A stretch of DNA of 64,000 nt, from the UHGV virus genome UHGV-0039337; one strand, 5' to 3'. The stretch comes from a virus. The first letter of the stretch is position 1; each line of letters begins with the position of its first letter. Position numbers and translations under genes: made by a program. The notes under the pieces are model-generated. The model did no database searches and was not told the origin of the DNA. It worked only from the letters and a program-made list of their open reading frames with translations. Of the stretch, positions 3,439 to 41,811 are shown piece by piece.

Positions 3439-5139
3439 GTGATAAATATTAAAATAATAGAGCGTAAAGCTGATATAAATAAGGTAAATGAATTATCAAA
3501 TAAATATAATATATCAAAAGATATAGTTAGTTTTCTATTAGGGCGTAATGTTCCTGATAATATAATTCCATTACTTGTAGCTAAAAATGAGATAGATTTA
3601 TTACCATATGATTCATTGACTAATGTAAAAGAAGCAGCAAGTATTATTGCTAAACATATAGAGAATGATTCCAATATATTTATATACGGAGATTATGACG
3701 CAGATGGAGTAAGTGCAACTTATATCATGTATCAAGCTTTAGTGGAACTAATAGAAGCTAACCTACAATACAATAGTAGCGTATATTATCATTTACCTAA
3801 TAGAAGTGAAGGATATGGACTTAATATAGATTGGTGTAAAGCTATTCCTACTAATAACTCATTAGTTATAACAGTTGATAATGGAATAACAAAAAGAGAA
3901 GAAGTTGAATATTTAAAAACTAACAATATAGAAGTGTTAATAACTGATCATCATAAACCACAAAAAGGTATGATACCAGACTGTACAATAGTAGATGCTC
4001 ATCTATATGATACAGATAATATAAATTCTTGTGGATTATGTGGCGCTGCAGTAGCATTTAAAATTATAGCTCAATTATATAAAAACTATGGATACGACTA
4101 TTCTTATATAAAAAAATATGTAGCACATGTAGGTATAGCTACTATAACAGATGTAATGCCTTTTACAGAAGAGAATGTAATATTTATTAGTAATGCTTTA
4201 AAATATATAAATGATTATCCTTATAGTAATGAAGAATACGCTCCAGTAACAGAATCTATATATTATTATGCTGAATCAAATAAAGGTAGTAAAGTTACTC
4301 CAAAAGACATAGCTTTTGGATTTGGTCCTCAAATAAATAGTTGTGGTAGAATGGGAGATATTCAAGTAGCTATGGATTTTATGTTAGCTACAGATGAAGA
4401 AGAACTATCAAATGTATTTAAAACAATGTGTCGACTTAATGACGACAGGAAAAATAAAACTAGCTTAAATATGGTTACTATACAACCTCCAAAGCTAACT
4501 GATTTAGCATTAATAATAAAACTTAATAATATAGAAGGTATAGCAGGATCTATAGCAAGTAATTTGTGCGAACAATACAATATGCCAGTAATAGTATTTA
4601 ATAACGAAGATGAAATATTATCCGGTAGTGCAAGATGTCCTGAATGTTATGATATGCAATGGTTATTGAATAATACAGATCATGTACTAACATTTGGTGG
4701 ACATACTAGTGCCGCAGGATTAAGCATAAAAGCTAAAGACTTTAAAATATTTAAAGACTCTTTTAATAAAGCAGTATCTAAAGCTCCCGTATCCGTATCA
4801 ATAGATGATACAGTATATGTAGATAAGATATTAACATCGTCTGATTTAAATAAATATACTATAACTCAATATGATAGCGTATTATTCTTTAATGAATTTA
4901 CTAGACCTATATATGCTTTAGAAAATATATACATAAAAGGCTATCATTTATCTAAAAATAATCCTAACAATATATGCTTTCATATTAAAACGAAAACTAA
5001 AGAAGTTAAGGTATGGTGTTGGGGTTACAAAGATAAATATAAAGCATTAGGTGAACCAAGTTTAGTAAATATAATAGGTTCTCTTGAAATATTTAACGGT
5101 ATGTTTGTAATAAATATATTAGATATAGAAGCGGTTTAA
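3439..5139 (+). CDS. RecJ-like DHH/DHHA1 phosphoesterase (single-strand DNA exonuclease)
   Basis: GTG start with a GGGAG RBS. DHH motifs are present: IYGDYDADGVSAT (motif I/II) and LITDHHKP (motif III). The length is RecJ-like. Confidence 0.7.
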   Translation: MINIKIIERKADINKVNELSNKYNISKDIVSFLLGRNVPDNIIPLLVAKNEIDLLPYDSLTNVKEAASIIAKHIENDSNIFIYGDYDADGVSATYIMYQALVELIEANLQYNSSVYYHLPNRSEGYGLNIDWCKAIPTNNSLVITVDNGITKREEVEYLKTNNIEVLITDHHKPQKGMIPDCTIVDAHLYDTDNINSCGLCGAAVAFKIIAQLYKNYGYDYSYIKKYVAHVGIATITDVMPFTEENVIFISNALKYINDYPYSNEEYAPVTESIYYYAESNKGSKVTPKDIAFGFGPQINSCGRMGDIQVAMDFMLATDEEELSNVFKTMCRLNDDRKNKTSLNMVTIQPPKLTDLALIIKLNNIEGIAGSIASNLCEQYNMPVIVFNNEDEILSGSARCPECYDMQWLLNNTDHVLTFGGHTSAAGLSIKAKDFKIFKDSFNKAVSKAPVSVSIDDTVYVDKILTSSDLNKYTITQYDSVLFFNEFTRPIYALENIYIKGYHLSKNNPNNICFHIKTKTKEVKVWCWGYKDKYKALGEPSLVNIIGSLEIFNGMFVINILDIEAV

Positions 5140-39045: not shown

Positions 39046-39618
39046 TTAATTATTTTTTGCTAATAATTTACTAGCAGATTGTACTGATTTAGTATTTATT
39101 TTTCTGTTAGATTTTTGTTTAGGTTCTTCTGATGCATATAATGCTCTACCTTTAGCCCATTCTTCTAAATCTTTTATCTTTTCTTGAGAAGATATAGTTA
39201 TAGGTATTACATCATTTTTAGCTGCTATTAAATCTGCTTTAGTTACTTCAAACTTCTTACCTTCTTTGGTACATCTTAAGAATGCTTTCTTCATGCTATT
39301 TTTAACTATTTGTTCTATTTCTGCTCCAGTATATCCTTGAGTTTCTACTGCTATATCTTTTATTATTTTTTCAGATACATCTAAACCTTTTTTGTTTATA
39401 TGGACTTTGAATATTTCTTTTCTTTCTTCTAAGTTCGGAGTATTGAAAAACCATATATTATCGACTCTACCGGCTCTAGTTAATTCTGGTGGTAAATCTT
39501 TTACATTATTACTAGTCATAATACAGAATATACCATTAGTATTATCATTTAACATTTCTAATATAGTTCCAAAGACTCTTGATAAAGTCCCTGAATCTGA
39601 AGCGTTTGAACTTGCATA
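39046..39618 (-). CDS. AAA+ ATPase exon 2 (sensor 1, arginine finger, sensor 2 region)
   Basis: The in-frame upstream extension YASSNASDSGTLSRVFGTILEMLNDNTNGIFCIMTSNNVKDLPPELTRAGRVD matches the AAA+ second region of homology. The 3' splice site was placed by analogy with the conserved AUAACAAA..G| terminus of the dut and helicase introns. Confidence 0.55.
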   Translation of the reverse strand, partial: YASSNASDSGTLSRVFGTILEMLNDNTNGIFCIMTSNNVKDLPPELTRAGRVDNIWFFNTPNLEERKEIFKVHINKKGLDVSEKIIKDIAVETQGYTGAEIEQIVKNSMKKAFLRCTKEGKKFEVTKADLIAAKNDVIPITISSQEKIKDLEEWAKGRALYASEEPKQKSNRKINTKSVQSASKLLAKNN

Positions 39619-40775
39619 CGTTTTGTTATCAATAGGCTTTTTATCCTATTTTCTGGGGCATTATACCCATTATGAACCTGTTAATTCAGGTTCCAGTCCA
39701 GCATATCTTTTCATGGATTAAATACCACACCATGGAACGGCCTCGTGGACACATTATATTCTACATAGTAGTTTCAGTGTCTATGCGTTGCGGCTGGTTA
39801 AGCTTTTAAACTTATCCTTCACCTCTGATTACGGACATTACCCGCTTTCCAGATTTTTTCCGTTCTAATAATTCTAAGACTTCTGTGGTTTCGTCTTAGA
39901 ACGGCTAATAAATCGTCCTTTTTCATCTCTTGAGATATATGGATGCTCAAGAGCATGACAGTCTTGACATAATGTGATTCCGTTATTAATATCATTAAAT
40001 TCTTTTGAATTTAATATCTTATCTATATTCATATCATATTTATTGCATATATCATATAATTGATTTACATGGTGAGCATGTAAGTTCTTTTTTGTTTTAC
40101 ATTTAGAACATTCATATTTGTCTCTTTTAAGGATCTTTGCTCTCCATTCATCATATTTTTCATGCGTGCGTAAATAATGCGAAATTTCTTTGTAAGTTTC
40201 TTTCTTATTGGTTCTATATTCATCATAGCATTCTTTACTACAAAAGTGCTTTTCGGCTCTATTATATGCATATTTATTTTTTTCAAATTCTTTATTACAA
40301 TTATCACATATTACAATTTGAGTTTCTTTTTTTGCATATTCAATTCTGCATTTTTTATTACAGAAATGCAGATTATGTTTATTTTTAACAGCTAGCACTT
40401 CTTTTCCACAATTATTACATTTAACAAATTCTTTATTTTTACGTTGTTCTGCTATTCTGCATTCAATAGAACAATATTTTGGAATTTGTCCACGCTTACT
40501 TTGTTTATTATAATATGATTCTTTAAGCTTAAAATTTTTACCACAATGTTGACAAATAAGCGAAATTTCTTTACTATATTTTACTTTTCCTTCTTGTTTT
40601 GCTAATTTAGCATGCTCTTTACAGCAATGAAATACTTTATTTTTGCTTTCATTGTATCTTGTAATGGTAATTTTAAACTCTTTATTACAATAATTGCATT
40701 TGACTATCATTATATATCACGTCCTTAATATATTTATTTATTAAGGTATTACCGTGAATGAACGATTTATTTATT
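39619..40775 (-). mobile_element. Group I-type intron (about 1157 nt) in the AAA+ ATPase gene, with an HNH homing endonuclease
   Basis: Separates the Walker B exon (...LLIDEVEKNLGG, ending GGU) from the sensor-1 exon. The GC-rich core at 39619-39873 is homologous to the helicase intron core. The 5' junction is uncertain by +/-1 nt because of a 1-nt conflict between my count and the ORF track. Confidence 0.5.
39874..40710 (-). CDS. Intron-encoded HNH endonuclease with multiple CxxC zinc fingers
   Basis: C-terminal HAHHVNQLYD...NGITLCQDCHALEH (HNH), with six or more CxxC pairs N-terminal. Confidence 0.65.
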   Translation of the reverse strand: MIVKCNYCNKEFKITITRYNESKNKVFHCCKEHAKLAKQEGKVKYSKEISLICQHCGKNFKLKESYYNKQSKRGQIPKYCSIECRIAEQRKNKEFVKCNNCGKEVLAVKNKHNLHFCNKKCRIEYAKKETQIVICDNCNKEFEKNKYAYNRAEKHFCSKECYDEYRTNKKETYKEISHYLRTHEKYDEWRAKILKRDKYECSKCKTKKNLHAHHVNQLYDICNKYDMNIDKILNSKEFNDINNGITLCQDCHALEHPYISRDEKGRFISRSKTKPQKS

Positions 40776-41811
40776 TACCTCCCAAGTTCTTCTCTACCTC
40801 ATCTATTAATAATACACAAGGAGCACAAGATTCAACTAAAGTTTTAACTTGAGCAATCTTTCTTTCTGATTCACCAACAAATTTAGTAAGGACAGAACTC
40901 ATATTTAATTTTAAAAATGGTACGTTTAATTCATTAGCTATAACTTCTGCCATATAACTTTTACTAGATCCTGGAACTCCTAATGCTAAATATCCTTTAG
41001 GCATATCAATACCTATTTCTCTAGCTTTAGGAGACATACATATTTTAGTTTCTTCGAACCATTCTTTAAATCTATGATTACCTCCTACATCATTCATTGT
41101 TGCTTTTGCCTCTTTGTAGTCTAACAAACCACTTGATTTTATCATAGATATTTTCTTTTCTTTTAACATTTCATAACTTAATTCATCATATTTAACATAT
41201 GATTCATCAAGAATTTCTATTATTTCTCTTCTACTATAACCTATAAAGTATTTATATACTTCTTCTGTATCTATTTCTTGATTTCTTACTTCAGCATAAT
41301 CATTTATTAATTCTTTTATATCTTCATCTGTTAATTCGTCATAATTTAATTCTTTAAACAAATGGTCTAATGTTGCATTTGATTGATGAGTAGGACTAAT
41401 AACTATAATAGGAGTATATATAGATTGTTTAAATTCTAATATTTCTCTGAATACTCTGGACCATGCATAATTTCCATATAATAAATCCATATCTTTTAAT
41501 ATGATAGCTGATAGTTCCATACTTTCTTTATCGCTTTGTATCTTATTATATAAAGATAATATAGCGGCACCACTAGTACCATTTTTAACTCCACTACTTT
41601 TATCTAGCATTTCTTTTACTATATTATTTTTACTATCAGTATTTAATTTATATATACCGGAAGATGGTTCAAAATCATATATAACATCTATACCTTCTTC
41701 TTTTAGAGTATTTATAACAGAAGCTACAACTTCTTTTTCTTGTTCAGATTTAATCCATATAGCTTCTTTTTTTATTTCTAATAATAAAGCTAATTCTTTA
41801 TTAAATTTCAC
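40776..41811 (-). CDS. AAA+ ATPase exon 1 (Walker A and Walker B)
   Basis: Walker A is LALGVPGSSKS and Walker B is CVLLIDEVEK. The ORF ends with a stop three codons into the intron. Confidence 0.6.

Follow-up and report, generated by a model that had tools for sequence, protein, structure and literature searches.

Introduction

Group I introns that hold a gene for an HNH endonuclease are found in the DNA polymerase genes of the phages SPO1/SP82 (I-HmuI) and in the RNA polymerase gene of PhiPA3. The general properties of HNH-carrying phage introns and of their homing have been described (PMC3984707, PMC12908238). Here we analysed a 64,000-nucleotide (nt) stretch of the virus genome UHGV-0039337, called the window below. 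In it an AAA+ ATPase gene is very probably split, between Walker B and sensor 1, by a mobile phage group I intron of the IA2 (Twort/AR9-like) kind with an HNH gene, hereafter the AAA intron.

The AAA intron and those of SPO1/SP82 and PhiPA3 have in common the HNH gene inside a group I intron, the location in a conserved motif of a nucleotide-handling gene, the presence/absence polymorphism and the apparent co-conversion of the flanks. The AAA intron differs from them in its AAA+ ATPase host, assigned to PHROG 8638, in four extra zinc-finger-like repeats of the putative endonuclease and in the place of its open reading frame (ORF), predicted to be in the P1 loop with its end running over the guide and P2.

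The introns I2 and I3 of Twort orf142 resemble the AAA intron in J6/7 GUGCAAC before P7, GAUAU...UGAAC after P8 and extra helices between P7 and P3'. They also share the 3' hairpin AUAGGA-loop-CCUAUU, the tail GUAACAUAAUUG that ends at the splice site and the L1 start AAAUAA. They differ from it in the canonical P7 GACUA/UAGUC, the lack of an ORF and the low overall sequence similarity. The Twort orf142 introns are of subgroup IA2, and the crystal structure of I2 is known (Golden et al. 2005, as cited in PMC3984707).

Among cultured phages, blastn of the core finds the gyrase A gene (AR9_g044) of the Bacillus jumbo phage AR9/PBS1, which is deposited as a three-piece join. The two introns of this AR9 gyrase A / topoisomerase II gene share with the AAA intron J6/7 AGGCGCAAC, P7 GCAUA/UAUGC, GAAUAUAAU...CCACGAG, J8/7 AAAAGAUAU, the hairpin AUAGGAUAAAAAGCCUAU, a tail ending in G and the layout of GCCGU guide, P2, AUYAUUAUUA and P3. 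Like the AAA intron, AR9 intron 2 follows a GGU codon. In contrast, the AR9 introns are compact, have no endonuclease ORF in the part read, lie in a different host gene and have a bigger P9 region with a duplicated UAUGCUAUGCUG. The identity is about 72% over 78% of the core. The AAA insert is, by these likenesses and by the class model described below, a member of the phage IA2-like group I introns and not a new kind of RNA.

Two halves of one AAA+ ATPase gene

Coordinates are those of the window, and every gene in the AAA+ region is on the minus strand (Table 1). The ORF 41811-40771, of 346 amino acids (aa), ends in ...CVLLIDEVEKNLGGK-stop and covers positions 2-68 of the 131 positions of Pfam AAA. 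The frame 39618-39046 begins with YASSNASDSGTLSRVFGTILEMLNDNTNGIFCIMTSNNVKDLPPELTRAGRVD... and covers positions 74-129 of the same 131, followed by AAA_lid_3. When GGU, ending at 40777, is joined to UAU, starting at 39618, a 535-aa protein results. It holds Walker A, Walker B, sensor 1, the arginine finger and the lid in one polypeptide, which is the composition used here to recognise PF00004.

Uninterrupted homologues fix the junction (marked ^ below). The joined-exon sequence reads ...GAACUUGGGAGGU^UAUGCAAGUUCAAACG at the predicted junction. The uninterrupted homologue P0001, found by database search, is also 535 aa long, is 99% identical and reads ...EVEKNLGG^YASSNASDSGTLSRVFG... there, with YASSNASDSG after the junction. 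A hundred or more homologues keep equal spacing across it as LGG(Y/I)..SSNASDSG, and the uninterrupted ones carry PF00004 and PF17862.

The uninterrupted 535-aa protein is encoded on the contigs L032 and L033, taken from Logan assemblies, which are 93-97% identical to the window on both flanks and lack the 1158-bp insert. Both contigs have the intron of the UvrD-like helicase gene (see below) although they lack the AAA intron. Megablast of the locus against cultured phages gave no match, and the best relative of the AAA+ protein among them is only 34% identical.

The last intron base is thus G39619 (omega-G), with the junction ...AAAACG^UAUGCA fixed by the homologues, and the intron is preceded by U40777, fixed by the intron-less allele. 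The first-pass annotation, made from the letters of the window, had read the ORF 41811-40771 as ending in Walker B and the in-frame upstream extension of the ORF 39555-39046 as the AAA+ second region of homology. Both readings agree with the sequence and with the Pfam positions above, and the alignment of the joined protein to AAA+ families, which it had advised, gives a residue-for-residue match to the uninterrupted homologues across the junction. Its intron span of 39619-40775 is right at the 3' end, where the intron-less homologues confirm the splice site, and one base off at the 5' end, which is 40776. It would have given up the intron if no 5' junction could end exon 1 in U and keep the frame; the junction is placed so at the GGU ending in U40777. 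Its central proposal, that an HNH-carrying intron splits the AAA+ gene, is supported by the homologues, the covariation and the homology to group I introns. It had overlooked that the Rfam group I model fails on this core, that the guide and P2 come after the ORF, and that the RNR and topoisomerase genes of the window hold introns too.

A covarying group I core

A core-motif search matched 27 viral contigs and about 19 of them are true members of one intron class. The remaining 8 of the 27 pattern matches are chance occurrences in GC-rich DNA and were discarded. We aligned 11 class cores and counted covariation over 39 pairs, those of P3, P4, P6, P7 (as pseudoknot), P7.1, P8 and the 3' hairpin.

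The structure pairs in 93.3% of the cells, as against 29-37% with slid partners. Both sides have changed in 27 of the 39 pairs, and on each of the five measures all 500 shuffles fall short. Such both-side changes are present in each of P3, P4, P6, P7.1, P8 and P9.2, and the introns at the same site as the AAA intron add further compensatory variants of P3 (GGGCAG/CUGCCC and GAAGGG/CCCUUC). The comparison shows, for the 3' 280 nt of the insert, a conserved, covarying P2-P9 fold that holds a predicted P3/P7 pseudoknot and ends in G.

Subgroup IA (IA2-like) is recognised by additional helices, P7.1/P7.2, located after the P7 5' strand and before the P3 3' strand (PMC3984707). The AAA intron has such a helix in P7.1, in which 4 of 5 pairs have changed on both sides across the class. 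Its P7 is GCAUA/UAUGC, whereas the canonical one is GACUA/UAGUC. Drawn on paper as A[C]GCAUA/UAUGCU, the geometry would suit a bulged base and a candidate guanosine-binding G-C, but the adjoining pair is C-G where A-U is usual and P7 has a single compensatory example. P7 as CCAG/CUGG was rejected; in L001 as in the AAA intron the CC belongs to P6, and the fourth of the CCAG/CUGG pairs is impossible in other members.

The stretch 39600-39880 has 40-42% G+C versus the window average of 28.6%, so the GC-rich core that had been noticed between the two halves is real. The sequence blocks that it had been said to share with the core of the helicase intron hold on re-examination, and the window has exactly two copies of the pattern CGCAACGCRTAG-N30-60-GAGGCCG, where 0 are expected.

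Table 1. Positions of the AAA+ exons and of the predicted intron features in the window
Feature	Position	Strand	Remarks
Exon 1, AAA+ ATPase	40777..41811	-	N-terminal domain, Walker A (GVPGSSKS), Walker B (LLIDEVEK); last codon Gly GGU, last base U40777
Whole intron, 1158 nt	39619..40776	-	begins AAAUAAAU..., ends ...GAUAACAAAACG; absent from the 93-97% identical L032/L033
UAA stop of the exon-1 frame	40771..40773	-	4-6 nt into the intron; read from sequence; stops ribosomes on the unspliced RNA
Structured leader of the HNH gene	40706..40766	-	AUCGUU (40766-40761) can pair with AAUGAU (40711-40706), start codon included
HNH homing-endonuclease ORF, 278 aa	39874..40710	-	four CxxC...CxxxC zinc-finger-like repeats, then HNH domain (..LHAHHV..NGITLCQDCHALEH..)
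Internal guide GCCGUUC, P1 3' strand	39899..39905	-	by positional homology; within HNH codons Ser-Arg-Ser
P2 hairpin UAAGAC/GUCUUA	39875..39898	-	extendable to UCUAAGAC/GUCUUAGA; holds the HNH stop codon UAG
J2/3 and catalytic core	39701..39874	-	covariation over 11 class members
P3	39865-39860 with 39740-39735	-	
P4	39853-39849 with 39828-39824	-	
P5	39845-39842 with 39834-39831	-	outside the covariation count
P6	39817-39811 with 39802-39796	-	
J6/7 AGCCGCAAC	39795-39787	-	
P7 GCAUA/UAUGC	39786-39782 with 39705-39701	-	
P7.1 GACAC/GUGUC	39781-39777 with 39752-39748	-	with inner hairpin
P8	39734-39730 with 39716-39712	-	
J8/7 AAAAGA	39711-39706	-	
P9 region	39696-39653	-	within 39619..39696
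Conserved 3' hairpin AAUAGG-AUAAAAAG-CCUAUU	39650-39631	-	covaries in 11 of 11 members
3' tail GAUAACAAAACG to omega-G	ends 39619	-	3' site fixed by homologues
Exon 2, AAA+ ATPase	39046..39618	-	sensor 1 (IMTSNN), arginine-finger region (TRAGRVD), lid domain, C-terminal tail

Guide, P2 and placement of the ORF

In most class members a GCCGN guide (CCCGU in L007, GCCAUG in L011) lies upstream of P2, J2/3 and P3, directly or a few nt away. The AAA intron has the same order of guide, P2 (39898-39875), GAAUUAUUA and P3, where the J2/3 of the class is ARUAUUAN. Seven members with a placed 5' splice site, the AAA intron included, are all inserted after GGU. The guide GCCGUUC would pair with the exon GGGAGGU by G.U at the splice site, C-G, C-G, a GxA mismatch at -4, U.G, U.G and C-G, so that G39905 faces U40777.

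The same-site introns of L038 and L039 have the guide GCCGCUC, in which the U.G at -5 is replaced by C-G while the overlapping codon still reads Arg. An energy scan also ranks GCCGUUC as the best exon-complementary site in the intron. Because the energy by itself is not significant, the assignment rests on positional homology.

The P2 position holds a hairpin of varying sequence that is still paired in most class members, although L011 is without any P2. In L038 it is UCUGGGCC/GACCCAGA, where AAG to GGG is compensated by CUU to CCC. Since the guide and P2 come after the ORF, the P1 loop contains the HNH ORF, whose last ten codons overlap both of them.

Two other guides were considered. One is AUCGUUCA before the ORF, as in the Twort layout of L1, guide and P2 (GUAA). 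It was set aside because in this copy it would place A-U at the splice site and because pairing with the start-codon region of the HNH gene accounts for its conservation; moreover, the guide-P2-J2/3-P3 block of the class stands after the ORF. The other, GUCUU at the ORF end, was rejected as the 3' strand of P2.

The HNH gene and its leader

The HNH ORF with many CxxC fingers, which the earlier reading had placed between the AAA+ halves, matches PHROG 1271 'HNH endonuclease' with E 4e-19, and five other HNH PHROGs also match. With Pfam HNH_2 it scores 19.8 bits, just under the 21-bit cut-off, and with zf-FCS weakly, while the motif LHAHH...N...CHALEH is legible in its sequence. In tblastn it finds annotated multi-Zn-finger HNH endonucleases of haloarchaeal tailed viruses. 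The protein is a putative homing endonuclease and its HNH-family ORF is intact.

The leader of the HNH gene appears structured. Its AUCGUU element (consensus RUCGUU) can pair with AAUGAU. A second stem, CACG (40756-40753) with CGUG (40721-40718), surrounds the hairpin 40746-40723, which overlaps the Shine-Dalgarno sequence AAGGA (40726-40722). RNAalifold on four same-site introns recovers both stems, with no pair changed on both sides. By eye, the sequences of the inner hairpin differ among the four yet stay complementary. The single-sequence fold has -15 kcal/mol with a z of -2.3.

Translational control of this kind is known for phage intron endonucleases. The structure around the ribosome-binding site and the start codon suggests such control of the HNH gene here.

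Relatives at the same site and signs of mobility

The intron occurs at the AAA site in at least nine contigs, which are L001, L004, L034, L038, L039, L041, L043, L044 and the window. It is complete in L001, L038, L039, L041, L043 and L044, while L004 and L034 hold the 5' part only. L001, L004 and L034 were found through truncated AAA homologues and the five others come from IMG/VR.

Between the spliced coding sequence and the intron-less allele of L032, 56 of 1608 positions and 4 of 535 amino acids differ. Of the 56 differences, 16 lie within -22 to +20 of the junction and all of these are silent, switches between the serine-codon families among them. The L032-type intron-less junction is CTCGGTGGT^TATGCATCAAGTAACGCAAGT, and other intron-bearing alleles with the flanks of the window read TTGGGAGGT and TCAAAYGCTTCAGA.

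Such a silent cluster is the trace that homing co-conversion, or selection for an uncuttable target, would leave. Two facts point to homing, namely the crowding of silent changes around the junction and the existence of relatives that have the intron beside others that lack it. Intron-less DNA with the intron-type flanks (GGGAGGTTAYGCAAGTTCAAACGC) was found neither in the JGI metagenomes nor in IMG/VR, which is uninformative since L032 and L033 themselves came from Logan.

The leader and HNH part of the window is 93-94% identical to those of L038, L039 and L043, whereas the ribozyme part is only about 66% identical to theirs. Conversely, the ribozyme part is 82% identical to those of L001 and L041 and the HNH part only 70-71%. 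By these identities the AAA intron is a mosaic of an HNH module and a ribozyme with differing affinities.

The truncated AAA homologues also revealed a second insertion site in the gene family, after ...RLDAIW in L002 and L003. The intron there belongs to the same core class, and its LAGLIDADG ORF extends into the core (L002 5206-6441). The protein P0013 ends at this same position, so the second site recurs. L002 and L003 are two independent assemblies of a related phage, and at 5020-5045 both have one extra base (CTC-A-GGC GGG TAT), located 6 nt before the GG^Y homing site, that truncates the AAA+ frame.

Proposed pathway and its alternatives

The AAA intron would act as follows. In the transcript, the guide GCCGUUC (39905-39899) would pair with the exon end GGGAGGU, the splice site being marked by the G.U wobble, and P7 would bind a free guanosine that attacks after U40777. 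The 3'-OH of exon 1 would then attack after the omega-G 39619, and the ligated mRNA would give the 535-aa ATPase. The HNH gene in the P1 loop of about 870 nt would be translated from its own Shine-Dalgarno sequence and AUG, and the conserved hairpins there suggest restricted or delayed translation. In mixed infections the endonuclease may nick or cut intron-less alleles near GGT^TAT, and recombinational repair would copy in the intron with about 20 bp of exon flank on each side.

Several points weigh against this reading. P1 is short and wobble-rich with the GxA mismatch at -4, its energy is not better than chance over the 1.1-kb intron (14 of 30 shuffles score no worse) and P10 has at most 2 bp. 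Ribosomes completing the HNH ORF would pass over the guide and P2. In P7, the only compensatory change is GCGUA/UACGC in L002, and the pair beside the presumed guanosine-binding G-C is C-G rather than the usual A-U. The Rfam model RF00028 gave no match to the AAA core at E<=10 in the 1.6-kb and 0.3-kb (300-nt) searches and so does not reach its gathering threshold. Finally, we infer splicing, endonuclease activity and homing all from sequence comparison.

Some of these points would be met also by an intron that is group I by descent and no longer splices, by its variant P7 or its weak P1, and that leaves the AAA+ gene a pseudogene. The failure of RF00028, the mismatch and several wobbles of P1 and the frameshift tolerated in the AAA+ gene of the related phage L002/L003 agree with such a dead intron. 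Yet both exons are intact and, in protein, only 4 of 535 residues away from the intron-less allele. Every core helix is intact as well, with the pairing kept by compensation among the same-site introns, and the HNH ORF is intact. The P7 variant is found in about 20 introns, including those across which annotators joined the AR9 gyrase. We regard the dead intron as improbable.

Less probable still, and in our view very unlikely, are genes in pieces, where a free-standing HNH gene has split the AAA+ gene into two separately translated polypeptides that reassemble, and nothing is spliced. The nrdA gene of the phage Aeh1, split by mobE, is a precedent. In favour are the stop codon in the exon-1 frame and an ATG within exon 2, at 39555, but no start codon is present where the conserved exon-2 sequence begins. 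The 21 codons before that ATG (YASSNASDSGTLSRVFGTILE) differ from L032 by 10 nucleotide changes and 0 amino-acid changes and are part of the AAA fold. Since the changes there are silent only, exon 2 is translated upstream of the ATG. Moreover, the space from the ORF to exon 2 is taken up exactly by the 280-nt covarying fold with its homology to group I introns, and the boundaries follow the rules of U before the 5' site and G at the 3' end.

For an element of another kind, be it an intein, a group II intron or an insertion like a transposon or IStron, the interrupted gene is the sole point in favour, and the probability is negligible. The host-frame stop codons in the insert rule out an intein. 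The insert has no reverse transcriptase, no Rfam group II match and no transposase, and the fold and the relatives are those of group I.

The intron class and its detection by Rfam

The miss by RF00028 is a property of the covariance model and not a defining feature of the ribozyme; the variant P7 and the long insert between P7 and P3' are suspected as its cause. An Rfam cmscan of the full 64 kb, at the gathering threshold and at E<=0.01, was empty, and scanning the AAA and helicase cores locally also yielded no group I match. A scan of its 1.1-kb neighbourhood gives the core of the intron in the dUTPase gene (dut) of the window 80.8 bits on RF00028, but whole-window scans miss it. The Rfam speed filters seem to fail in sequence of 28.6% G+C and, hence, whole-window Rfam negatives are unreliable here. 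The RF00028-positive dut intron has the 3' hairpin and tail and the P3-P8 layout in common with the AAA intron, whereas the AAA and helicase cores are without an RF00028 match. In the local scans of these cores RAGATH-22 gave a weak, non-significant match (21.6 bits versus the 120-bit cut-off); a literature search for RAGATH-22 was without result and the candidate was dropped.

A class covariance model was built from the 3' half of ten class members, with AR9, Twort and dut excluded. Under this model the AR9 introns reach 97-98 bits, the dut intron reaches 40.1 bits (E 7e-8) and I2/I3 of Twort orf142 reach about 26 bits (E 2e-4). The variant P7 GCAUA/UAUGC is common to about 20 introns in many genes, the AR9 gyrase included.

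Several introns of the class are carried by other viral contigs. L012 (4905-5063) has two hits, of 120 and 101 bits. In L009 and L029 a small ORF is inserted in P8, so the place of the ORF seems not to be constant among class members. In L022 the usual P3 motif of the 5' core half was not found upstream, so this core may be interrupted.

We lean slightly to the view that the AAA and helicase introns form a distinct Twort-like IA2 sublineage invisible to Rfam, marked by P7 GCAUA/UAUGC, J6/7 AGSCGCAAC and a near-constant GCC guide that directs insertion after GGU Gly codons. It would have colonised many essential genes of uncultured AT-rich jumbo phages, at P-loop GKT sites, at the two sites in the AAA+ gene, in gyrase/topoisomerase and in a further, possibly structural, gene, and would spread as a modular kit, with HNH or LAGLIDADG cassettes in the P1 loop over the guide and P2 that are swapped independently of the ribozyme. 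A bolder addition is that the endonuclease may serve inter-phage competition, as reported for PhiPA3.

Significance

The AAA case is well supported, but as a mobile element it is ordinary and of a kind already known, and the understanding of how group I introns work is unchanged by it. Mildly new are the AAA+ host gene, the variant-P7, GGU-targeting sublineage missed by Rfam, the layout with the ORF in L1 over the guide and P2, and the intron density of at least six in 64 kb.

For annotation, the intron left unrecognised makes the AAA+ ATPase two truncated ORFs with an orphan HNH gene. Five other genes of the window are miscalled in the same way, and standard whole-window Rfam scans miss every intron in this AT-rich sequence. 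The AAA+ ATPase of PHROG 8638 joins the phage genes targeted by homing introns, with at least two independent sites in the gene family. The natural pair of alleles with and without the intron, together with the tract of silent changes at the junction, is usable for studies of HNH-driven homing.

Other interrupted genes in the window

At least six group I introns, the AAA intron included, are found in the 64 kb. An 852-nt group I intron (27401-26550, minus strand) with a different HNH ORF (27383-26793) interrupts the dut gene at ...GTIDS^KYRGEI. Its guide GGAGUC, just before P3, pairs perfectly with the exon GACUCU and, by this guide position, its ORF is also in the P1 loop.

The UvrD-like helicase gene is split in its P-loop (..TATAGAG^KTRV..) by an 1183-nt variant-P7 intron (36936-35754, minus strand) with a LAGLIDADG ORF (36850-36044). 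Its layout is the guide GCCGU, P2 CUCAGGAU/AUCCUGAG and P3.

The ribonucleotide reductase (RNR) gene is split at ..GQKGRRG^ALMISMD.. by an intron of about 942 nt (52537-51596, minus strand), and this one also follows GGU. Its guide GCCGC pairs with the exon GCGGU, its 176-aa ORF (52333-51803) is apparently in the P6 region and it scores 25.9 bits on RF00028 (E 3e-4), below the cut-off.

The gene for a DnaE-like DNA polymerase III alpha subunit is called as two ORFs, 25577-24327 and 24313-22421 on the minus strand. The break (about 24345-24310) is a one-base frame change just before the catalytic PDIDID, where ..HRKGT(I)P-stop is followed by YPDIDIDVPSDYRD in the next frame, and no intron is there. 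Its cause could be an indel of the assembly, programmed frameshifting or a genuine lesion.

The gene for the B subunit of a type II topoisomerase, also on the minus strand, has two more apparent group I introns, 62013-60756 and about 63750-63195, neither of which has an Rfam match in a 3.5-kb scan. The latter ends with G63195 and holds a 128-aa ORF (63748-63362); its 5' end was not located. The former follows ..IMSDADVD^ and has a LAGLIDADG ORF (61941-61078) and the canonical P7 GACUA/UAGUC.

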